Assembly (NCBI RefSeq): GCF_016903815.1
Contig: NZ_CP069973.1
DNA: 64,000 nt
Direction: 5' to 3' (one strand)
Source of the DNA: Escherichia coli
GTDB taxonomy: Bacteria; Pseudomonadota; Gammaproteobacteria; Enterobacterales; Enterobacteriaceae
A model generated the notes under the pieces. The model ran no database searches. It saw only the letters and a program-made list of their open reading frames with translations, and was not told the DNA's origin. The position numbers and the translations under genes were made by a program. Below, in pieces: positions 18,802 through 46,936 of the stretch (its first letter is position 1; the number at the start of each line of letters is the position of its first letter).

Positions 18802-18877
18802 GCCCGGATAGCTCAGTCGGTAGAGCAGGGGATTGAAAATCCCCGTGTCCTTGGTTCGATTCCGAGTCCGGGCACCA
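18802..18877 (+). tRNA. pheV: tRNA-Phe (GAA anticodon)
   Basis: 76-nt cloverleaf gcccggatagctcagtcggtagagcaggggattgaaaatccccgtgtccttggttcgattccgagtccgggcacca; position after yqgA. Confidence 0.95.
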
Positions 18878-19074: not shown

Positions 19075-20337
19075 ATGGCACTGACTGACGCAAAAATCCG
19101 GGCTGCAAAGCCCACTGACAAGGCTTATAAACTTACTGACGGGGCCGGCATGTTCCTGCTGGTTCATCCTAATGGTTCCCGTTACTGGCGTCTCCGTTAT
19201 CGTATTCTGGGTAAGGAGAAGACTCTGGCACTTGGTGTGTATCCAGAAGTTTCTCTCTCCGAAGCTCGTACAAAACGGGATGAGGCCCGAAAACTGATTT
19301 CGGAGGGGGTTGACCCTTGCGAACAGAAAAGAGCTAAAAAAGTTGTCCCTGATTTACAGCTCTCTTTTGAACATATTGCACGACGCTGGCATGCCAGTAA
19401 TAAACAATGGGCACAATCACACAGCGATAAAGTACTCAAAAGCCTCGAGACACACGTTTTCCCCTTTATCGGCAACCGGGATATCACAACACTCAATACC
19501 CCGGACCTGCTTATCCCTGTTCGTGCTGCAGAAGCTAAACAAATTTATGAAATCGCCAGTCGTCTGCAGCAAAGAATATCTGCTGTAATGCGTTATGCCG
19601 TACAGTCTGGCATCATCAGATATAACCCGGCTCTGGATATGGCTGGTGCATTGACCACGGTAAAACGCCAGCATCGCCCTGCTCTGGATCTTTCACGCCT
19701 GCCTGAACTTCTGTCGCGTATTGACGGTTATAAAGGCCAGCCTGTCACCCGACTGGCAGTTATGCTGAATTTACTGGTTTTTATTCGTTCCAGTGAACTC
19801 AGATATGCCCGCTGGTCTGAAATTGATATTGACAATGCCATGTGGACTATTCCAGCCGAACGCGAACCTCTGCCGGGCGTAAAATACTCACACCGGGGCT
19901 CCAAGATGCGAACACCACATCTTGTGCCACTCAGCCAACAGGCTGTAGCCATACTGACAGAACTTCAGACATGGGCAGGTGAAAATGGTCTGATATTTAC
20001 GGGTGCACATGACCCGCGTAAACCAATCAGTGAAAATACTGTAAATAAAGCCCTCAGGGTGATGGGGTATGACACAACCCGGGAAGTCTGTGGCCATGGA
20101 TTCCGGGCGATGGCGTGCAGTGCATTGATTGAATCAGGTTTGTGGTCCCGCGATGCTGTGGAACGTCAGATGAGCCATCAGGAGCGTAATGGTGTACGTG
20201 CTGCGTATATCCATAAAGCAGAACATCTGGAAGAACGTCGACTGATGCTACAGTGGTGGGCAGATTTTCTGGATGCGAACAGAGAACAATGTATCAGCCC
20301 GTTTGAATATGCAAAGATTAACAATCCATTAAAATAG
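19075..20337 (+). CDS. P4-type tyrosine integrase
   Basis: 420-aa ORF, N-terminus MALTDAKIRAAKPTDKAYKLTDGAGMFLLVHPNGSRYWRLRYR typical of P4/CP4 integrases, adjacent to tRNA. Confidence 0.9.
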   Translation: MALTDAKIRAAKPTDKAYKLTDGAGMFLLVHPNGSRYWRLRYRILGKEKTLALGVYPEVSLSEARTKRDEARKLISEGVDPCEQKRAKKVVPDLQLSFEHIARRWHASNKQWAQSHSDKVLKSLETHVFPFIGNRDITTLNTPDLLIPVRAAEAKQIYEIASRLQQRISAVMRYAVQSGIIRYNPALDMAGALTTVKRQHRPALDLSRLPELLSRIDGYKGQPVTRLAVMLNLLVFIRSSELRYARWSEIDIDNAMWTIPAEREPLPGVKYSHRGSKMRTPHLVPLSQQAVAILTELQTWAGENGLIFTGAHDPRKPISENTVNKALRVMGYDTTREVCGHGFRAMACSALIESGLWSRDAVERQMSHQERNGVRAAYIHKAEHLEERRLMLQWWADFLDANREQCISPFEYAKINNPLK

Positions 20338-22496: not shown

Positions 22497-22763
22497 TTAC
22501 AGTTTATTCAGAATAAGGCAGGCGGCCCGGTTTAATGCAATAAACTCCTGCCAGCTGTACTGAGACTGATAATTCAGTAAATACTGGTCTTCAACCCGGC
22601 AAATCTGTGGGCGTTTATCATAAATTGCACACAAATGAGAATCAGTCTGATAGTGACGGCAAATACCGTCACCACGATCCAGACATTGCGTTTCACCCGC
22701 CCTGTTGACATGACGACAACAGGCCCCACACTGGTTACAGGGAAATGGAGGGTGTAATTTCAT
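22497..22763 (-). CDS. YkgJ-family Cys-cluster (zinc/iron-chelating) protein
   Basis: CNQCGACC ... C-x-C motifs in 88-aa ORF; 4-nt overlap with upstream gene. Confidence 0.7.
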   Translation of the reverse strand: MKLHPPFPCNQCGACCRHVNRAGETQCLDRGDGICRHYQTDSHLCAIYDKRPQICRVEDQYLLNYQSQYSWQEFIALNRAACLILNKL

Positions 22764-24377: not shown

Positions 24378-25457
24378 TTAACTCCGGGATGAAAAATCAT
24401 CAAATTTCACAACCGAACTGGCCAGTACATCATCCAGCTCTTCCTTATTAATAACATTCATTCCATTATCATCCTTTTCCATTTCAATAACGTTATCTTT
24501 TATCACAGCCTCACCATTTTCCTGTTTCCGCGGTTTAAACAGTGGCGTTGTAATAATATCCGTCATAATAGCGGCCAGTGAATATCCATGGTCAATAAGC
24601 ATAATGATTTCATCTGATACATTGATATCCTGTTGTTCTGTAATAACAGAATGCATGGATTTAAGCGGCTCAAAATAGTGTTTAATAAATACAGCATGCA
24701 TTCTGTTCAGCGCAGCGAGAATTTCATCAACGTATTGATTAACTTTTGCAAAATGCTCCCGGGCCAGATTCATTTTCTTAACTGCCCGTTCAACTTTGCA
24801 GGCACACTGATGGGCATTTTCAAGAGCTTTCGTCGCGTGTCTGTCGTAAGCCCAGCCCGCAATGGCAATCAACGGTGCAGCCACTGCGGTGCCTAATACC
24901 ATTGCGCCGCCGGCCATTCCCATGCCCCCTGCCGCGAGAGAGCCCCCTCCAATTGCCGCCATCGTCGCGTTATAAGCCGCGGCACCAGAAAGCGCTGCAA
25001 TGGGTGTACCTGTGGAAGCCGCAGCAAATGCCATCACTCCGCTATACACAGCAAAACCCGCAGCAGCCCCGGAAACTCCGGCAGCTACGACCGTACTGAG
25101 ATATTCTGTTGCTGAAATGGCCAGGTTATGAATCTTATTGATGTTATGTTGCGGGACACTCAGTTTCAGGTCTTTATTGCCCTCTTTTTCCAGACGCGCC
25201 AGGAGCTCAGCAGCAATCCTGTCGAACTCACTGAAATCTTTACCAATCTCAAGCTCTTTATTTCCGAGCGTTGTTAATTTTGATGATGTCTGAGCTTCAG
25301 CCTGCTCAAATTTTCCTTTATGCTCCTCGTAACGCTCTTTTGCTTTTTCGAGCACATCCTCTGCTTCTGACTTTTTTTGATATCCATCGTAAGCTTTTTT
25401 TCCGCCGAATGCCGCAGCGCCGGCAGCCACACCCAAAATAATGAAAGGTAACGCCAT
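24378..25457 (-). CDS. hypothetical membrane protein with Gly/Ala-rich glycine-zipper-like TM segment
   Basis: N-terminal TM MALPFIILGVAAGAAAF, coiled-coil-like charged region, Gly/Ala-rich stretch; AGGAGG RBS. Confidence 0.6.
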   Translation of the reverse strand: MALPFIILGVAAGAAAFGGKKAYDGYQKKSEAEDVLEKAKERYEEHKGKFEQAEAQTSSKLTTLGNKELEIGKDFSEFDRIAAELLARLEKEGNKDLKLSVPQHNINKIHNLAISATEYLSTVVAAGVSGAAAGFAVYSGVMAFAAASTGTPIAALSGAAAYNATMAAIGGGSLAAGGMGMAGGAMVLGTAVAAPLIAIAGWAYDRHATKALENAHQCACKVERAVKKMNLAREHFAKVNQYVDEILAALNRMHAVFIKHYFEPLKSMHSVITEQQDINVSDEIIMLIDHGYSLAAIMTDIITTPLFKPRKQENGEAVIKDNVIEMEKDDNGMNVINKEELDDVLASSVVKFDDFSSRS

Positions 25458-25495
25458 TCTTTTCCTCCTGTACAGGTTGCTTTATCATCAGTCAA

Positions 25496-25509
25496 CTGAA
25501 ATATTTCAG
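25496..25509. promoter_or_regulatory. 14-bp perfect palindrome CTGAAATATTTCAG between regulator and downstream gene
   Basis: Seen directly; overlaps regulator stop codon, about 40 bp upstream of next start. Confidence 0.3.
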
Positions 25510-26402
25510 GAAACATTCTCAGCGGTGAGGTATTTTCCTAACATTGTTAACACGGCTTCTTTCAACCATACTGGTTCAATAATTTCAACATTCGGTAGCC
25601 AGTATAAAATCAACGGGATAATTTGATTTTTATGTGCAGCCTTGCATGACAGCGTAATGCCATTATCATGTCTGTGTAGCAATTGCTGGTAAGGAAGTAA
25701 GTCCCGTCGCAAAAAATAATGGGCGATATTACTGTGAATGAACAACACTACATCAAATGTTTTGTCGCTCACCCACGGGTCACATGACTCACTTATCAGT
25801 GACTGTATTTCCTCACTCTTTGCAAACTTTTCTTTTTTTATATCCAGCCATTTTATTTTAGCTAATGAAAACGACTTTAACTTGTTCTCTTCAGTAGCCA
25901 GCAAATACCATATACTTCTCTGATTAGTTAATTTATAGGGATGAACGATTCTGGTCTTACCGGCATATGCAATCTGACAAATATTACTGTTGCGGATCGC
26001 TTTTTCAAGAACATCAAGATATTTTCTTAAATCATCCCTGATAGTGTGCTCAGGGTTATGAAACTGAACACGAATATGCTTTTCGGTTGCCCTGTTTTCT
26101 AATTTCTGCCAGAAACCTTCATCCCGTTCAGGAAAAATCGCATCAGTATCCAGTAACCTGGCCAGAGATTTGTGCAGTGATCCTTTGCTCTGGTTTCCTG
26201 CTCTTGCTGAAATAAGCCGGTATTTTCCATCGCCACAGGCTTCAATAAAGGGAGAAAGCATATTCAGATCACGATATGCTGTTCGCTCAGTGATGTTGTA
26301 TTTTTTCATCAAATTATGACGACTGACCACGCCATAATTCTGTAATTCAACAAGGATATCAATCAAACGCTCCGCTGAGCGATTTCTCGTTGAGTCAGCC
26401 AT
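25506..26402 (-). CDS. WYL-domain transcriptional regulator (HTH-WYL-WCX type)
   Basis: N-terminal HTH-like segment, WYL signature RSIWYLLATEENKLKSFSLAKI. Confidence 0.75.
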   Translation of the reverse strand: MADSTRNRSAERLIDILVELQNYGVVSRHNLMKKYNITERTAYRDLNMLSPFIEACGDGKYRLISARAGNQSKGSLHKSLARLLDTDAIFPERDEGFWQKLENRATEKHIRVQFHNPEHTIRDDLRKYLDVLEKAIRNSNICQIAYAGKTRIVHPYKLTNQRSIWYLLATEENKLKSFSLAKIKWLDIKKEKFAKSEEIQSLISESCDPWVSDKTFDVVLFIHSNIAHYFLRRDLLPYQQLLHRHDNGITLSCKAAHKNQIIPLILYWLPNVEIIEPVWLKEAVLTMLGKYLTAENVS

Positions 26403-26455
26403 AAATCACTGCACCTGTAGTATTACTCTTGTGTAAGTGAATTATATAAATACTC

Positions 26456-26472
26456 CTGACATCATTTGTCAG
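26456..26472. promoter_or_regulatory. inverted repeat CTGACAtcattTGTCAG upstream of WYL regulator
   Basis: Seen directly, about 55 bp upstream of regulator start; half-site resembles the 25496 palindrome. Confidence 0.3.
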
Positions 26473-26821
26473 TTCCACAAAACTACGCCCTCCGGCAACA
26501 GATTTTTATTTGATTATGTTCAAACTTTAAACCAGATGTCCGGGAGCCTCCTTCGTAATACGGTTTATTGTTTCCGGAAGGGCTGATATGACAAAAAACA
26601 ACGTGTCCCAACAACAGTCCTTTTTCATTTAACAGACTGACAACCATACTGCGCGCTACCTGCCCCCTGTAAAAAATCAACGAGAGTAATATTTTTGCTC
26701 TATTTATATTTCATTCATCTGAAATTATTAGTTGCCAGAGGGAGAATATCATCAGGATATCTGTTATTGATTTGTCATACCTGCACTTTACTGTGCTCCA
26801 AAGCGCAGGCAGAAATGGCCA

Positions 26822-27559
26822 TCAGAAGTTATATGTTGCACCTAACATAAACTCATTACTTCTGACATCAACAGAGGATTTATATTTAGCGCCATCCTCA
26901 TCTTTATAAGTCAGAGTGGAATCCCCTGCATCCAGATACCGGTAACTGAGGTCAAGGCTGAAATCCTGCGTCACATCGTATTTAACACCGACACCAAGGC
27001 TCCATGCCAGGTTATTTTCGTATTTTGACGCTGAAGCTGAATATACTTCACTGCCTGCCGGACTGTTATCGGTATATATGTACGAAGTTTTATGATGAAC
27101 CCGAGCATAACCCAGACCAGCAGATATCCATGGCGTGAATGCACTGCTGTTTCTGAAATCATAATACGCATTCAGCATCAGCGTGTTTACACTGAGCTTG
27201 TTCTGTGCATCATCAAACTCGGCACCACCGACACTTTCCCAATAACTCAGACGATATTTTGATTCAGCGTTACCGCGGCCATAAAACTCCACTTCAGTAC
27301 GCACCGGCACATTGTAGTGCTGATAAAAATCGTATCCCACCGCAAGGCCTGCGCCAAAAACCGTATCACTTTTGTCACCGCCTTTATATTTATCCGCCCA
27401 TGCCCCTTCACCATCAACGAAACGTTGCTCTGAAAGTGACATAACAGAAGCACCTGCTTTACCGGTCACATAAAAGCCTGTTTTGCTCTCATCAGCCAGA
27501 GTCTGGGCCGAAAACATGCCTGCCATTGCAAGCGCTGAAACCGCAATAACCTTTTTCAT
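26822..27559 (-). CDS. outer membrane beta-barrel protein (Tia/Hek/Hra-like adhesin-invasin family)
   Basis: Signal peptide MKKVIAVSALAMAGMFSAQTLA, alternating aromatic beta-strand pattern, C-terminal ...LGATYNF. Confidence 0.7.
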   Translation of the reverse strand: MKKVIAVSALAMAGMFSAQTLADESKTGFYVTGKAGASVMSLSEQRFVDGEGAWADKYKGGDKSDTVFGAGLAVGYDFYQHYNVPVRTEVEFYGRGNAESKYRLSYWESVGGAEFDDAQNKLSVNTLMLNAYYDFRNSSAFTPWISAGLGYARVHHKTSYIYTDNSPAGSEVYSASASKYENNLAWSLGVGVKYDVTQDFSLDLSYRYLDAGDSTLTYKDEDGAKYKSSVDVRSNEFMLGATYNF

Positions 27560-27877
27560 TTCAATCATCTCCGTTGGTTCTTGCCCTACCCGACAAAGAG
27601 GGTTGCCTATTTTAAAACCATGCAAAAGACAGGGTAAAATGGTTACAACCGATCGATGTGATCATATCGATCGGTAAAATCGATCGATATTGGTGAGGGT
27701 TTTCGTTTCGAATCAACAAAATGGTAATGATGGGGCCCGGACTGAAATGCTGTGTCCCAGAAGCCCGGAAGGTTTGCATTACAACTGCACCACAGTACAA
27801 AATGTCAGACACAGTAAAAAAGACTGGGTAATCAACCCACCAGAGAAAACACGTTTATTGCAAAAGAGAGGGGAATT

Positions 27878-28351
27878 ATGTGCAAACTGACTAAAGAAGA
27901 AGAATACAGCATCATCAGTCGGACAATGACGAATATTCGTTCACTACGCACGTATGTACGCGAACTTGATTTTGAGCAATTACTCGACATGCAGGAAAAG
28001 CTCAACACTGTTATTGAAGAACGCCGTGAAGATGCTGAACGAAAAGCGGCTGAACGTAAGGAACTGGAAACTAAATGTCAACAGGTATTTGAGTACATCG
28101 TTTCTGTGGGGCTTGACCCGGAAGAATGGCAGGGTCCAGTTTCTGCTATTGCAGGGACAACGGAAACCAAACGAAAACCCAAAGGCGGTGTGAGAAAAGC
28201 GAAATATATCTTTGAGGATGAGAACGGCGAAACCAGGACGTGGTCTGGTAACGGTAAAATGCCACTTGCTTTGCGGAAACAGGTTAATGGAGATTGTACC
28301 CTGGAAACTTTCCTCATTGAAAAACCCAATCAACATGAACAAAGTGAATAA
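27878..28351 (+). CDS. H-NS family nucleoid protein paralog
   Basis: Translation aligns by eye with H-NS (NIRSLRTYVRELDFEQLLDM...; AKYIFEDENGETRTWSGNGKMP). Confidence 0.8.
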   Translation: MCKLTKEEEYSIISRTMTNIRSLRTYVRELDFEQLLDMQEKLNTVIEERREDAERKAAERKELETKCQQVFEYIVSVGLDPEEWQGPVSAIAGTTETKRKPKGGVRKAKYIFEDENGETRTWSGNGKMPLALRKQVNGDCTLETFLIEKPNQHEQSE

Positions 28352-28902: not shown

Positions 28903-29910
28903 TTATCTATAGCGTTTTTGTAAACTGGCAGGAAGATAACGCTGTAATGGGGATGGCGTTTCACCTTCAATCAGTTGCGAAATAAGCTCAAAGCAGTGAA
29001 AAGCAAGTTGGCGATTATCCTGTTGTATTGTGTCGATTCTTACCGAAAGTGAATCATACAAATAATGATCATCAAAACTCGCCAGGTGGATTGTACTGTC
29101 GAGTAAATTATATTGGCTCATATAGCGCAGAACGCCTTCCAGTAATCCACAAGCGGCAGTGAATAAGGCTTTAGGAGGACGTCCTAAACGAGCGCATAGC
29201 GCGGCAAACATTTCATAGCCTGAGCTCGGATGATAATTACCGTGAATAATCCATTCAGGTTGTAGCGTTACTCCGGCTTGCTGCAAGCCTTGTGTAAATC
29301 CTTCCAGTCGATCGCGAGTCGGTGACAAACGGGGTTGTCCCCCCAGAAAATAGAATTCATCCGGGTGACTCCGTGCAATATCTGCCACCAGAGCGGCGGT
29401 GGGAGAAACAGAGTCAGTAATGACCAATGGCAATGTGCTGCCGTTCATGTGGCGATCGAACAACACAACAGGTAATTGCTCGCTAAGTTTTTGATAGTCA
29501 TTATCATGCAGCATACTGGATGCGACGATTAACCCATCAACCTGGCGGGCAATCATATTGTTCACCACCATTGTTTCCTGTGAAGGATTTTCATCAGTAC
29601 AGGATATGAGGAGTTGGACGCCCGCTTCCCGACACAATGTTTCCAGTTCATGGGAAAATACTGCAAATCCGTAGTTAGTGATTTCAGGAACGACGAGACC
29701 AATGGTATGACTGCGGTTGTCCCGTAATGAGCGGGCATGAATGCTGGGCTGATAATGCTGCTGTTGGGCAATACTCAGCACACGCTCACGCGTTTCCTGC
29801 GCAACACGTAACTCTTTGCCACGACCATTGAGAACCAGACTGGCGGTTGCTTTCGACACTCCCGCCAGTTCAGCAATGTCTTTAATAGTAACGCGTTTGG
29901 TTTTTCTCAC
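28903..29910 (-). CDS. scrR: LacI-family sucrose operon repressor
   Basis: N-terminal [26 protein letters not shown]; sugar-binding domain; position after scrB. Confidence 0.85.
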
Positions 29911-29935
29911 GACGAGGATCCGTAATTCAAAACCC

Positions 29936-31345
29936 TCATTCTACCATGCAGGCGCGTAGCGACCAGTAGCGTAACGTGACGTCAGACTCACCCTGTAATA
30001 TCAGCGAAGCTGGATGATGGGGAAAATAACGATTACTCATTACACCTTCACCATTATTGATGAATATCTCTACGCTGGAACTGTCACAGAGAATCTTCAG
30101 TGACGTTACGCTTCCTCGCCAGTAACGAGTTAGTTTCTCTTGCCCTGCAAGGCTTCTCCTCTGTAGTTGAATACCATCGTCATTAAGATGCAGTGCCAGC
30201 GCATTGCCAAAATTCAGATACAGCTCACCCGACGGAATGATGTCCATTTCCAGGCGTTCAATTTCGACATGCGGCGCATGATCCGCTTTTCCTTGCCAGA
30301 AGTGTTCAGCTTCACGCAGTTGCGCGAGTTCCCTGATTGGCATCTGAAACAATTTTCCCTTCTGGAATGAGAGTTCGCGAAAACAGGTCATTTGATGCTG
30401 CCAATGATGCTTTCTGGTTGGCTGCAACATCTCTTCGCCATCAGGAACCCCCATCCAGCCGACCAGCAATCGTCGCCCGTCCGGGGCTTCCATCGTCTGT
30501 GGTGCATAGAATTCAAATCCCGCATCCAGCTCTGAGAAAGCGCCATGCGTAAATTTGCCTGTCTCGTAATCAAACTGTCCATGTAGCCAGGCGCAGGGAT
30601 AAGTATTCAGATAGCGCTCATGTTCGCGCACCATTCCCTGGGGGCAACAGAGGAGAATGTATTCACCATCAAGGGCGAAAAGATCAGGACATTCCCACAT
30701 GTATCCTGCGTTATCTATTTCATTCAGACCGTTACCAGCAATTTCTCCATGAAAAGACCAGGTATTCAGATCGACAGAGGAATACAGCAGCACTTTCCCC
30801 CGTTTCTCTTTATCTTGCGCGCCAAGCACCATGTACCATTGGCTGTTGTGCTTCCAGACTTTTGGATCACGAACATGTCCGGTGTAACCATCAGGTAACG
30901 ATATGACAGGGCCTAGTTTATCAAACCCGCCCTGGTTATTTTCGGTGGCCAGACATTGCCATGCCGTTCTGCTGCCATCATCAAACTTAACATTACCGGT
31001 ATAGCAAAGTGTGAGAACGCCCTGATTATTAACCGCGCTTCCTGAGTAACAACCATTACGGTCGTACTCTTTATCGGGCATTAGCGCTAATGGTTCATGC
31101 TGCCAGTGCAATAAATCCGTCGAACTCCAGTGCCCCCAACATTTGTACTTATGATCACAAGCCAGTGGATTCCACTGATAAAACAGATGATAGCGGCCTC
31201 CAGACCAGCAAAAGCCATTTGGATCGTTCATTAGTCCGGTGACGGGAGCGAGATGCCAACAAGGATAGTGGGCATCTGCCAGTGCTTTGGACTGACCTTT
31301 CATCACTGCCTGTAAAATCGCGGGCATTTGTGAAGGCATCGACAT
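29936..31345 (-). CDS. scrB: sucrose-6-phosphate hydrolase (GH32)
   Basis: GH32 motifs [15 protein letters not shown] and WECPD. Confidence 0.85.
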
Positions 31346-32715
31346 TACTCCTCGTCCGTTTTGTATTTGAATAATAAAGAGAGGCTAAAAGCGACAGCGA
31401 AAGCAATCACCATTCCAATAATATAATTAACCAACGATGTTGGCTGAACGATTGCCATGCCGGGTATTGCGGTCAGACCAACGGCAGTCATATAAACGTG
31501 AACAGAGACAACCCAGGCACCGCCGGCAGCGCCACCAATTAAGGCCGCAATAAAAGGTTTAACAAAACGAAGGTTGATACCAAAAATAGCGGCTTCAGTA
31601 ATCCCTAACATTGCGGAAAAGGCCGAGGGTAGGGTGATTGCTTTAATTTTTGTATCTTTGGTTTTAAACCATACCGCCAGACATGCACCGCCTTGCGCAA
31701 CGTTTGCCATTGCCCAAATAGGCAGCAGGAAATTAACACCGATTGCAGGGTTACCTAAAAGTCCTGCTTCAATTGCGTGGAAGCTATGATGAATACCCGT
31801 AATAACAATCGCTGAATATAGCCCGCCGAATAACAACCCTGCTAACCAGCCTGCGTGTGCAATCAGCGTGCTGAGAACGAAAGAGATACCGTCACCTAAC
31901 GCTCGTCCTGCCGGACCAATAATCAAAAGAGCGATAAAGCCAGAAATGACGACAGTCAGAAATGGCGTCAGAATGAGATCCAGAGCATCAGGGATAAACC
32001 TGCGTAACTGTTTTTCCACTATGCTCATAAACCATACTGCCAGAAGCACGGGGAAAACCGTTCCCTGATAGCCAATCATGGCGATTTCAAAACCGAAGAA
32101 GTTCATTGTCTGAAATCCCGCAGCAACGCCCCAGGCATTTGTGAGTGCCGGGTGAGTCAGAATCCCTCCTAATGTCGCGCCAAGATAAGGATTTCCACCA
32201 AATTCACGAGCAGCAGTAAAGCCAATAAGGATGGGGAGAATAATAAATGCGGCTGAACTGCACATATCCAGCAGGATATAAATCGCATTATCGGTATTCA
32301 CCCAGCCATATGTTTTCACCATTCCCAGAAGCCCCATTAATAAACCAGAAGCAACAATGGCTGGAATGATGGGGACAAAAATATTAGAAAGTAGCCGTGC
32401 TATTCGCTGAAAAGGATTGAGTTTTTGAGCGGCGAGTCGAGCGATATCTGCTTTACTGGATTCGCTAATACCTGCAACCTGAATAAAGGCAGCATAGACT
32501 TTATTAACCACGCCGGTGCCAAAGATAATTTGCATTTGCCCTGAATTACGAAAACAACCTTTCACTCCATCAATCTGGCCAATGGCATGTTGATCGGCAA
32601 GTGTGTCGTCAACCAGTACCAGCCGTAGGCGAGTGGCGCAATGTGCTGCACTGGCGATGTTCTCCTTACCACCTAATAAAGGAAGCAACGATTGGGCGAT
32701 TTTATCGAAATCCAT
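31345..32715 (-). CDS. scrA: PTS sucrose-specific EIIBC component
   Basis: EIIB motif AHCATRLRL then multi-TM EIIC. Confidence 0.85.
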   Translation of the reverse strand: MDFDKIAQSLLPLLGGKENIASAAHCATRLRLVLVDDTLADQHAIGQIDGVKGCFRNSGQMQIIFGTGVVNKVYAAFIQVAGISESSKADIARLAAQKLNPFQRIARLLSNIFVPIIPAIVASGLLMGLLGMVKTYGWVNTDNAIYILLDMCSSAAFIILPILIGFTAAREFGGNPYLGATLGGILTHPALTNAWGVAAGFQTMNFFGFEIAMIGYQGTVFPVLLAVWFMSIVEKQLRRFIPDALDLILTPFLTVVISGFIALLIIGPAGRALGDGISFVLSTLIAHAGWLAGLLFGGLYSAIVITGIHHSFHAIEAGLLGNPAIGVNFLLPIWAMANVAQGGACLAVWFKTKDTKIKAITLPSAFSAMLGITEAAIFGINLRFVKPFIAALIGGAAGGAWVVSVHVYMTAVGLTAIPGMAIVQPTSLVNYIIGMVIAFAVAFSLSLLFKYKTDEE

Positions 32716-32775
32716 ATAACCCTCTAATTCATTGTTATTTCAGTAAAAACTTCACATCTGTGAGGTTGTCTGGTA

Positions 32776-34317
<1,542 letters not shown>

Positions 34318-34460
34318 TTATAAAAATTGCTAAAATGCTAAACCGGTTTAGGTGTTGATAATAAAGCTGACTTTTTAGCCAAAGCAATTATTTTCGCTAA
34401 ACCGATTTAGTAAATGTGACAGGCACGACAAATCGGGTTACAGATACAACAGCAGGATCA

Positions 34461-35381
34461 CTATTGTGAAGGGAGATCGTGTTGTCGGGGTAAGGCGGTC
34501 ATCGCGCCTTTAGCCGTGGTCGCCAGAGCACCACAAATCTGAGCTTGTACAATGATTCGTTCAAGCTGTCTGGTATTTGTTGGTATTCCAGAATCAGCCA
34601 GACCGGCAAGTAATCCAGCGACAAAAGCATCTCCTGCCCCGGTCGTATCGACGACAGAAACAGGTTTGGCGGGATAGTGGATAAACTGCCCCTGAAAATA
34701 CACAAGTACGCCATTTTTTCCTTGTGTGATAAGCAATAAAGTCAACGAATAACGTTGTACTAATGAATATGCGCCTTGCTGAACCTGGCTTTCGCCACTG
34801 ATGAATAGCAACTCTTCTTCGGACAATTTAGCGATATTCGCCAGCGAAAGTGCGCGATCAAGGTATTTCCTTAATAGCGCTTCACTCTGCCAGAGATCGC
34901 TGCGGATATTGGGATCAAAACTGATGTTTCCGCCAGCCTGACGTATTTTCTCCATAGCCAGAAATGCGGTACTTCGGGAAGGTTCTGCACTGAGCGCAAT
35001 GGAACAAAGATGGAGCCATTCACCCGGCCCAAATGCAGGAAGGCCATCAGGTTGTAAAAAAAGATCGGCACTTGGGCGTACCATAAAGGTAAAGTTTCTT
35101 TCTCCTTGCTCATCAAGTCCTACAGCCACAATTGAGGTGCGATGTTGAGGATCAAGAGACATATAACGTGTATCAACATTTTCTGTACTCAGTGTCTGAT
35201 ACATAAAGCGACCGAAAGGATCATCGCCAACTTTGCCAATAAAGGCACTTTTCCCCCCCAGCCTTGCGATACCGACTGCAACATTAGCAGGCGCCCCGCC
35301 AGGACACTGTAGTAGTCTCCCCTGGCTTTCGGGTAATAAATCAACAACCGCATCACCAAGTACCCATACTCTTGTGCTCAT
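34461..35381 (-). CDS. scrK: fructokinase (PfkB family)
   Basis: PfkB motifs GGAPANVAVG and DTTGAGDAFVAGLL. Confidence 0.85.
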   Translation of the reverse strand: MSTRVWVLGDAVVDLLPESQGRLLQCPGGAPANVAVGIARLGGKSAFIGKVGDDPFGRFMYQTLSTENVDTRYMSLDPQHRTSIVAVGLDEQGERNFTFMVRPSADLFLQPDGLPAFGPGEWLHLCSIALSAEPSRSTAFLAMEKIRQAGGNISFDPNIRSDLWQSEALLRKYLDRALSLANIAKLSEEELLFISGESQVQQGAYSLVQRYSLTLLLITQGKNGVLVYFQGQFIHYPAKPVSVVDTTGAGDAFVAGLLAGLADSGIPTNTRQLERIIVQAQICGALATTAKGAMTALPRQHDLPSQ

Positions 35382-36214: not shown

Positions 36215-37105
36215 TCAGGCTGCCAGATCATCGTTTCCGATGGAAGCATAATAAGCTTTTTCTGCTTCTGCCGGAGGAGTATGGCCCAGCCTTCCCAGCA
36301 ATCGTCGATTGTTATACCAGTCCACCCACGTTAGTGTGGCCAGTTCCACTTCTGCACGGTTTTTCCAGCTCTTACGGTGTATTACCTCCGCTTTGTAAAG
36401 ACCATTGATGCTCTCAGCCATCGCGTTGTCATACGAGTCGCCTGTACTCCCTGTTGATGCCAGTAATCCGGCTTCTTTTAGTCGCTCCGTATAGGCCAGT
36501 GACACATACTGAGAGCCTTTATCGCTGTGATGGATGGTGCCAGACGGACGACGGGCCCACAACGCCTGCTCCAGCGCATCCAGCACGAATGTCGTTTCCA
36601 TAGACGATGAGACCCGCCACCCCACGATGTATCCGGCAAACACATCAATGATAAACGCCACATAGACGAAGCCCTGCCATGTGCTGACGTAAGTAAAATC
36701 AGCCACCCACAGCTGGTCAGGTCGTTCTGCCACGAACTGACGGTTTACGCGGTCGCCTGCGGCAACGGCTTTCCGGCTGATGGTCGTACGGACCTTTTTA
36801 CCCCGGAGAACACCGGCAAGTCCCATAACCGCCATGAGACGTGCCACTGTACATCTGGCCACCCTGATTCCTTCCCGTAACAACTGACGCCAGACTTTAC
36901 GCACACCGTACACCTGATGATTTTCATCGTATACGCGCTGTATCTCTCTCTTCAGCCAGTCGTCGTGCTGCGCACGGGCACTGCGTTTATCCGGATGATG
37001 TCGCTGTTGCTGACAATGGTAATACGTTGACGGGGCAATATGCAGTTCGCTGCATACCGGTCCGACCCCGTACTGCTCACGCAGCTTATCCAGCAGTGGC
37101 ATCAT
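36215..37105 (-). CDS. insF: IS3 transposase OrfB (DDE integrase domain)
   Basis: 296-aa translation recognised as IS3 InsF. Confidence 0.85.
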
Positions 37106-37428
37106 TTTTTCCAGAGGCGGTCGAACTCCGCCTTCGCAAAATAAGCGGAAGCCTGGCGAAGGATATCGTTACTGCGGCGCAGTTCACGATTTTCACGTTC
37201 CAGCTCTTTCAGACGCTGACGTTCAGCGCTGGTGAGCCCACCATCACCGCCCCCGGTATCCCGCTCATGCTGGCGAACCCAGACACGCAGAGTCTCCGGC
37301 GTACAGCCAATCTTTGGAGCAATGGAACAAATTGCCGCCCACTGTGAGTCATATTCATCCTGACTTTCCAGAACCATACGAATCGCCCGCTGACGGACTT
37401 CGGGGGAAAAACGAGTATTTTTAGTCAT
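37102..37428 (-). CDS. insE: IS3 transposase OrfA (HTH)
   Basis: 108-aa translation [20 protein letters not shown]... recognised as IS3 InsE. Confidence 0.85.
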
Positions 37429-46711: not shown

Positions 46712-46936
46712 GGAAAACGCACATCAACACCAGCACAGTACGATACAAACACCAGTGACTGACGGGACGAAAGGAATAACGAATCAGTCAGGAAAGAGCT
46801 ACAACCTGCTGGCTGACCGGAGAGGGTCAGCAGGAAAATGAACGGTAATGTCGCCAGCACCAGGGACAGAGCTGATTTCCGCAATACCAGCGCCGGCATT
46901 TTGCACATTGCCAGCGTACCGGCATCACAACTCGTT

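Follow-up and report, generated by a model that had tools for sequence, protein, structure and literature searches.

How does a WYL-domain regulator that heads a gene cassette in an Escherichia coli genomic island govern its own gene and the genes behind it, and through how many DNA sites? We examined this question in a 64,000-nucleotide (nt) stretch of the E. coli chromosome (contig NZ_CP069973.1; the whole stretch is referred to here as the window, and positions are counted from its first letter), where a tyrosine integrase and an island of horizontal origin come after tRNA-Phe (18802-18877). The regulator gene lies in this island, with three genes behind it, referred to here as cargo A, B and C (Table 1). 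The original prediction had held that two related palindromes flank the regulator gene, a perfect one of 14 bp over its stop codon, about 40 bp before the first cargo gene, and an inverted repeat about 55 bp upstream of its start, and that both are operators of an autoregulating repressor that also gates the cargo. The arrangement is as described: the open reading frame (ORF) is an HTH-WYL-WCX protein by Pfam, the near edge of the stop palindrome, CTGAAATATTTCAG, is 38 nt from the cargo A ATG, and the upstream repeat, CTGACAtcattTGTCAG, is located 53 nt upstream of the regulator ATG. As to function, we are confident that the upstream repeat is the operator of the adjacent WYL regulator as judged from its conservation, while it is quite likely, on the same kind of comparison, that the stop palindrome is not an operator.

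A protein search for the regulator identified relatives of 43-64% identity across the Enterobacterales and of about 30% identity in Aeromonas. Scanning one genome per species gave 57 loci with their flanks, to which two more were added through contig look-ups; the sequence P0002 proved to be another E. coli copy. The word CTGACA-N5-TGTCAG was found, at 0-1 mismatch, upstream of the regulator in 33 of the 37 non-E. coli relatives (26-64% identity), 25 times perfect and 8 times with one mismatch, and always upstream of the regulator gene. It was perfect in 17 and had one mismatch in 2 of the 20 closer loci, at positions -63 to -70 from the ATG, and was perfect in 7 and had one mismatch in 6 of the 16 loci at 26-32% identity, where it stands at -95 to -259. 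A relative of 43% identity (locus L069) carries a perfect operator, CTGACAccagaTGTCAG, at -60. It is the sole strongly conserved non-coding element upstream of these relatives, and no second copy with 0-1 mismatch was found within 6 kb on either side at any locus.

In an anchored alignment of 21 distinct sequences, the two arms of the operator hold 1.88 and 1.91 bits per position, against 0.23 in the 5-nt spacer and 0.3-0.5 in the flanks. The spacer is always 5 nt long, which puts close to one turn of the helix (11 bp) between the centres of the half-sites. Arms that do not change, around a spacer of free sequence and fixed length, point to the binding site of a dimeric protein rather than to an RNA hairpin, for which compensatory changes would be expected. 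On sequence comparison alone, a palindrome with invariant arms, such as a homodimeric regulator would bind, thus lies upstream of nearly all relatives.

The relatives from Kosakonia, Cedecea, Silvania and Aeromonas (26-32% identity, L025-L044) carry the same word about 180-260 nt upstream of their regulator genes, a distance from which a leader of some 190 nt follows. The order of the operator and a conserved block, tttcc-N10-11-gccgtta, differs between the groups: in these loci the operator comes first, and in the Enterobacter group the block does.

The palindrome over the stop codon has 5 of 6 bases in common with the operator arm (CTGAAA and CTGACA). Its half-sites are separated by 2 nt, with their centres 8 bp apart, 3 bp closer than those of the operator, and the C that is invariant in the family is replaced by A in both arms. 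The pattern CTGAMA-N0-7-TKTCAG, built from those same two sites, has only two matches in the 64 kb, which are the two palindromes, against 0.17 expected. Perfect 14-bp palindromes were found 8 times in the window, against 4.7 ± 2.0 in Markov simulations, which is roughly what chance would give. Perfect inverted repeats with an arm at most one mismatch from CTGACA and a spacing of 0-8 were found 4 times (at 19386, 25496, 26456 and 46813), against about 0.75 expected. Two of them, CTGGCATGCCAG (19386-19397, inside the integrase gene) and CTGACCggagagGGTCAG (46813-46830), have arms one mismatch from CTGACA, are not 5-nt spaced and were taken as chance look-alikes. Since statistics of this kind cannot decide on the stop palindrome, the comparison with relatives has to.

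We searched from -200 to +150 of the regulator stop codon for repeats with both arms at most one mismatch from CTGACA/TGTCAG and a spacer of 0-9. No operator-like repeat was detected in the 34 non-E. coli loci; the sole near-match is non-palindromic and lies deep in the coding sequence of L006. None of the 8 loci that carry the same cargo showed the palindrome, or a likeness to it, near the stop. The original prediction had itself taken absence of the motif from homologous loci to speak against it; the motif is retained in front of the regulator and missing at its end, and of the two proposed operators only the upstream one is supported. When the junctions of the relatives were aligned, only the Shine-Dalgarno sequence and the start of cargo A proved conserved, and the stop palindrome falls in a C-terminal tail of the regulator that varies in length and sequence. 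In Aeromonas, only 4 nt separate the regulator stop from the cargo start, which leaves no room for an intergenic site. Six E. coli variants (97-98.6% identity) keep both palindromes, but at 2-3% divergence this is expected by descent and carries no statistical power. It is most likely, from these comparisons, that the stop palindrome is a coincidence of the E. coli lineage, and the chance that it has any function is small.

If only one operator exists, it has to serve both the regulator and its cargo, and the layout of the cassette allows this. A -10-like hexamer (TATAAT, CATAAT, CATCAT, GATAAT or TATCTT) stands at a fixed 9-10 nt from the right arm of the operator in all groups, at about 1.0 bit per position: exactly 9 nt downstream in the 21-sequence alignment, and as a TATCTT-type hexamer after 10 nt in the distant group. 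The hexamer is often weak in relatives (CATCAT, TATCTT), and the spacing is constant although the intervening bases are random. No -35 hexamer was found at 16-18 nt from TATAAT, and the promoter scan gave no canonical -35/-10 pair there. From its position, the operator would cover about -38 to -22 of the regulator promoter; being in the core promoter, one site can control the regulator and the genes behind it, and it very probably controls the cassette. In the 48-nt gap between regulator and cargo A, the scans predicted neither a terminator nor a promoter, and no stable RNA fold was found for the gap (z=-0.26) or for the stop palindrome. An internal cargo promoter was thus considered and set aside, as the scan gave none and the ribosome-binding site alone is conserved at the junction. 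The gaps further down the cassette are 46 nt and then a 4-nt overlap, and all four genes, from the regulator to cargo C, keep their synteny in Pectobacterium, Citrobacter, Serratia and Aeromonas. The small gaps, the lack of a predicted terminator or promoter in the first of them and the synteny argue for one transcript, so that one operator suffices for autoregulation and cargo gating; the four genes are probably co-transcribed from a single regulated promoter.

The regulator matches Pfam WYL (PF13280; 36 bits, cut-off 21.8, E=6.8e-9) and WCX (PF25583; 32.5 bits, cut-off 23.9, E=1.1e-7), and its N-terminal matches to HTH_11 and HTH_DeoR, over residues 12-50, fall narrowly short of the cut-off. 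In the AlphaFold2 model (pLDDT 78), residues 2-63 form three helices and a beta-hairpin. Foldseek searches with this model placed DriD (9e-14) and PafBC (8e-12) above CapW (1.4e-9) and BrxR (4e-9), the DriD, CapW and BrxR matches being full-length. A family profile searched against the PDB found DriD at 2e-4 and BrxR (7qfz) at 0.023, and CapW was not found in that search. By BLASTP, the regulator showed 18% identity to BrxR of Escherichia fergusonii (BrxR-Efer; E=0.15). The WYL motif of the family is [IL]-W-Y-[LM], with no flanking arginines, and IWYLLA here aligns with RWHVRA of BrxR-Efer. Two arginines, R40 and R44 (i, i+4), are invariant in 52 sequences and lie within a predicted helix (39-48). 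They would correspond to R37 and R41 of DriD; a phmmer search of the HTH domain alone against the PDB gave no usable residue-level alignment to DriD. The single-stranded DNA (ssDNA) contacts of DriD, R176, R178, R189, Y192, R204 and W206, align with K149, R151, R162, Y166, K176 and F178 of the regulator, which has Ser/Ala where DriD has R207; judged by alignment only, 6 of the 7 aligned contact positions are conserved or similar (residue list from PMC10853764).

DriD of Caulobacter crescentus and DdaA of the Moraxellaceae are homodimeric ssDNA-sensing activators of winged HTH-WYL-WCX architecture, and DriD is the best match to the regulator in structure and in sequence. The DriD site is ATACGAC-N7-GTCGTAT, in promoters without a -35, where its distance to the -10 is constant (PMC13004042); the DdaA site is CGWCA-N5-TGWCG, and DdaA also controls defence systems (PMC12392091). 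The core GAC-N7-GTC is common to these two and to the operator here. In DriD, R37 and R41 of the recognition helix read two guanines in each half-site, and a change of C4/G12 raises the dissociation constant (Kd) from 1.6 to 962 nM (PMC10853764). By these comparisons, DriD and the regulator would share arginines at i and i+4 of the recognition helix, most of the ssDNA-contact positions and a site at a fixed distance from a -10 without a -35. On the other hand, the regulator is only about 20-23% identical to DriD and DdaA, the outer base of the half-site is T rather than the C of DriD, Y43 stands in place of DriD E40, and the centre of the site is near -30, whereas that of DdaA is at about -50. 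DriD and DdaA are chromosomal masters of a DNA-damage regulon; the regulator here is a local one, the first gene of a mobile island cassette, and its activating role is a prediction. The RecA-NDp motif of PafBC, tTGTCRgtg-N8-TAnnnT, also resembles TGTCAG-N9-TATAAT, a likeness that we treat as an unconfirmed lead only.

Other WYL regulators offer partial parallels. SiwR of Mycobacterium smegmatis is a homodimeric WYL activator that uses a 19-bp imperfect palindrome between the -35 and -10 of the neighbouring operon (PMC10693628); the position of this palindrome matches that of the 17-bp repeat here, by description and without sequence comparison, but SiwR is divergent from its target and controls DinB-like genes. 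BrxR (E. fergusonii plasmid pEFER and Acinetobacter; BREX) and CapW (CBASS) have the same wHTH-WYL-WCX order, lead defence-type cassettes as the regulator does and belong to families with interchangeable cargo, and the promoter of brxR itself likewise holds a palindromic operator whose spacer is 5 bp (PMC9122601). The repressor clade of CapW and BrxR has the motif RWHVR in the WYL domain (PMC11662680), where IWYL is found here, and identity to BrxR is low, as given above. The arms of the operator are 6 bp long, against 10-11 bp in BrxR and CapW. The CapW site is over the -10 and the BrxR site downstream of it, whereas the repeat here ends 9 nt upstream of a predicted -10 that has no -35 at 16-18 nt. 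On pEFER, R-BOX1 and R-BOX2 both have a 5-nt spacer (PMC9122601); here there is no conserved second box, and the spacer of the stop palindrome is 2 nt.

Our explanation of the whole, one operator, a single mRNA and control of the activator type, is tentative, and we rate it slightly below an even chance. In this explanation, the promoter at TATAAT would give a single mRNA of the regulator, cargo A, cargo B and the cysteine-cluster gene (cargo C), so that one site would gate the cassette. In each GAC half-site, R40 and R44 would recognise the G and the C. A ligand of the WYL domain, probably ssDNA from DNA damage or phage infection, would act on the operator-bound dimer, and the ligand-bound dimer would recruit RNA polymerase to, or position it on, a promoter without a -35. 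This would turn on the cassette and, by positive feedback, the regulator itself. That the regulator activates rather than represses, like the homodimeric DriD, DdaA and SiwR, is slightly favoured. This lean follows from the ranking of DriD and PafBC above CapW and BrxR in the Foldseek and hidden Markov model (HMM) searches, from IWYL in place of RWHVR, from the common GAC-N7-GTC core, from the invariant R40/R44 that parallel DriD R37/R41, from the DriD ssDNA-contact positions being mostly kept and from the fixed 9-10 nt to an often weak -10 without a -35, as at the DriD and SiwR promoters. The label of repressor given to the regulator by the original prediction is unproven.

Could the two palindromes nevertheless act otherwise? 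That the upstream repeat is an RNA hairpin, or the intrinsic terminator of the upstream outer-membrane-protein gene, and no protein site at all is extremely improbable. The terminator scan does list it, with a 6-bp stem of 3 G-C pairs followed by GAGTATTTAT, but it folds at -8.1 kcal/mol, no better than shuffled sequence (z=-0.07), its arms are invariant without compensatory changes, its tail is neither T-rich nor conserved among relatives, and it stays with the regulator gene while the gene upstream changes from group to group. For both palindromes, a hairpin or terminator was set aside, since neither folds better than shuffled sequence. A model of two operators, with repression of the regulator promoter through the upstream repeat and separate gating of the cargo through the stop palindrome, could draw on the agreement of the arms, the closeness of the palindrome to the cargo ATG, the two sole matches in 64 kb, the retention in E. 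coli variants and the precedent of pEFER, where a putative second box, R-BOX2, lies in the 3′ part of brxR (PMC9122601). We nevertheless judge this model improbable, given that none of the 34 non-E. coli relatives has the palindrome, even where the cargo is the same, that no promoter is predicted between it and the cargo and that conservation within E. coli carries no weight. The half-site spacing of the palindrome is also wrong for a family in which the 5-nt spacer, kept in R-BOX2 too, does not vary, and both its arms have lost the invariant C, the equivalent of the C4/G12 change that is so costly in DriD (PMC10853764). About equally improbable, if not slightly more so, is a function unrelated to the WYL regulator, as the site of another protein or as a weak internal promoter, specific to E. 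coli, for basal expression of the cargo. The palindrome does sit in AT-rich intergenic sequence just upstream of the cargo ribosome-binding site, and weak hexamers can be read near it (CTGAAA-17 nt-GATAAA or TTGACT-17 nt-TACAGG), but these fail the promoter scan and are not conserved, and palindromes of this length are near chance frequency in the window. The LexA box is CTG-N10-CAG; the spacing of neither palindrome fits it (CTG-N8-CAG at the stop and CTG-N11-CAG upstream). We know of no other E. coli factor whose consensus sequence the stop palindrome fits.

A more serious rival, less probable than our explanation but still substantial, keeps the single operator and makes the regulator an autorepressor in the manner of BrxR and CapW: the dimer would block sigma-70 region 4 at the -35/spacer, and ssDNA or another ligand would de-repress the operon. 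The evidence for a conserved operator serves this rival equally well. The cassette resembles PADLOC defence candidates, and the characterised WYL regulators beside defence cassettes, BrxR and CapW, are repressors (PMC9122601, PMC9122588, PMC11662680). With 5 of 6 bases as in TTGACA, the left arm (CTGACA) could be an occluded -35, and the orphan, apparently self-regulating copies of the regulator in Enterobacter, Lelliottia and Leclercia are easier to picture as autorepressors. However, the 20 nt between CTGACA and the -10 exceed what a sigma-70 promoter could bridge without help, and with no other -35 and a poor -10 in many relatives, the promoter would have almost no activity even once de-repressed; the regulator also lacks RWHVR, and DriD and PafBC match it better than BrxR-Efer does. 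Returning to the explanation by a single operator, one mRNA and activation, several points tell against it in addition to the repressor role of BrxR and CapW and the R-BOX2 precedent. The stretch from -38 to -22 is one where repressors, too, classically bind, and the -10 assignment, the binding of the regulator and the start site are predictions. The linker in the AF2 model (residues 60-125), which would distinguish a DriD-like three-helix bundle, is of low confidence, and the margin between the activator and repressor clades is moderate, at 20-23% against 12-16% identity. In the model, such a related palindrome would fall within the 1.1 kb around the gene with a chance of about 1.3%; at a chance expectation of some 1-5% this near the gene, the coincidence is uncommon and not extraordinary, and there is a small chance of a weak second site specific to E. 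coli at the stop codon.

The regulator family was found in 372 of 5426 complete E. coli genomes (about 7%) and in many other Enterobacterales. The same cargo stands directly behind the regulator in 8 loci, from Pectobacterium, four Citrobacter, Enterobacterales CwR94, Serratia and Leclercia UBA7405. At L069 (1648-4256), genes for a dynamin-like GTPase (Dynamin_N) and a protein of 494 aa stand behind the regulator in place of A, B and the 88-aa cargo C, which indicates that the module of regulator and operator travels with varied cargo. In Enterobacter, Lelliottia, Leclercia and Huaxiibacter (L011-L015 and L017-L023; e.g. L014, 6886-9259), the regulator is an orphan without cargo and the operator is kept; one Leclercia copy of the regulator is a pseudogene with the operator intact. 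The orphan loci have a GC-rich hairpin after the regulator, then TGTGA-N6-TCACA, a 716-aa CstA/BtsT-like gene and yjiX/yjiA-like genes. GTGAT-N4-ATCAC near the stop of the Enterobacter and Lelliottia relatives was considered as a second operator; since it has the form of the CRP consensus and fronts the CstA/BtsT-like transporter gene, this repeat was assigned to the transporter and not to a second WYL site. Two candidates for alternative cargo, H17 and H18, proved to be merely IS5 truncations. In some E. coli strains (L001 and L002, 9000-9362 in each), IS5 cuts the regulator after about 120 codons and leaves the operator and the 5′ end; beyond IS5 lie other defence systems, Zorya type II and a DEAD-box helicase with a methyltransferase.

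Taken as a family, these regulators could be an undescribed Enterobacterales/Aeromonas group of ssDNA-sensing, DriD/DdaA-like WYL activators, whose operator-promoter module would be a portable switch, inducible by damage or infection, for interchangeable candidate defence cassettes; we hold this as a possibility, somewhat short of an even chance. WYL regulators are increasingly recognised as the switches by which costly anti-phage systems stay silent until DNA is damaged or the cell infected. The present comparison gives an uncharacterised WYL family a precisely defined and testable predicted operator and spares later experiments the complication of a false second site. The regulator of this defence island may work as DriD and DdaA do, as an activator, and not as a repressor like BrxR and CapW; if so, defence islands would use WYL activators besides the known WYL repressors, and all family members in one cell would recognise the same DNA word, making cross-talk between islands possible. 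These findings stay conceptually within the known range of WYL regulator biology.

Table 1. Features of the regulator cassette and its surroundings in the window
Feature	Position	Strand	Remarks
Inverted repeat CTGACAtcattTGTCAG (CTGACA-N5-TGTCAG, core GAC-N7-GTC)	26456-26472		In the regulator's own promoter
Perfect 14-bp palindrome CTGAAATATTTCAG	25496-25509		Over the regulator TGA stop; E. coli lineage only
-10-like hexamer TATAAT	26441-26446	minus	9 nt downstream of the operator; assigned by sequence
HTH-WYL-WCX regulator gene, 298 aa	25506-26402	minus	Pfam WYL and WCX, AF2 model, Foldseek; ATG at 26402, TGA at 25506-25508
Gap between regulator and cargo A, 48 nt	25458-25505	minus	Shine-Dalgarno AGGAGG at 25464-25469
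Cargo A, 359 aa, hydrophobic glycine-rich N-terminal segment	24378-25457	minus	ATG at 25457; resembles PADLOC candidate PDC-M09A, E=1.7e-22
Cargo B, 523 aa	22760-24331	minus	Resembles PADLOC candidate PDC-M40B, E=1.8e-42
Cargo C, 88 aa, CxxCxxCC cysteine-cluster protein	22497-22763	minus	PF03692, 26 bits (cut-off 23)
Outer-membrane protein gene	26822-27625	minus	Upstream neighbour of the regulator gene, same island

Cargo A and cargo B are each like one component of a PADLOC candidate, PDC-M09 and PDC-M40, respectively, whereas here A, B and the 88-aa CxxCxxCC protein form one conserved three-gene unit. Our literature search found no papers on PDC-M09 or PDC-M40, which are candidate families without a described function. 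The 88-aa ORF, which lacks annotation in the RefSeq record NZ_CP182912.1, probably represents a real third member of the cargo. Its ATG shares bases with the cargo B stop (ATGA), and six other genera have it behind cargo B as well, at 48-77% identity. Distant WYL regulators (L028, L038 and L044) also have homologues of it, 5-6 kb downstream.

After the 88-aa ORF, a phosphoethanolamine transferase gene of the island is listed on the minus strand. An Rfam scan of the whole window gave no match within 25300-26800; its matches were the ALIL pseudoknot, a frameshift element of IS3-family transposases (37031-37147, minus strand), and naRNA4 (CssrE; 6906-6976, minus strand). An H-NS paralogue adjoins the cassette (27878-28351, plus strand), and a sucrose utilisation cluster at 28903-35381 on the minus strand encodes a LacI-type repressor, sucrose-6-phosphate hydrolase, the EIIBC component of a phosphotransferase system (PTS), a ScrY-like porin and fructokinase.

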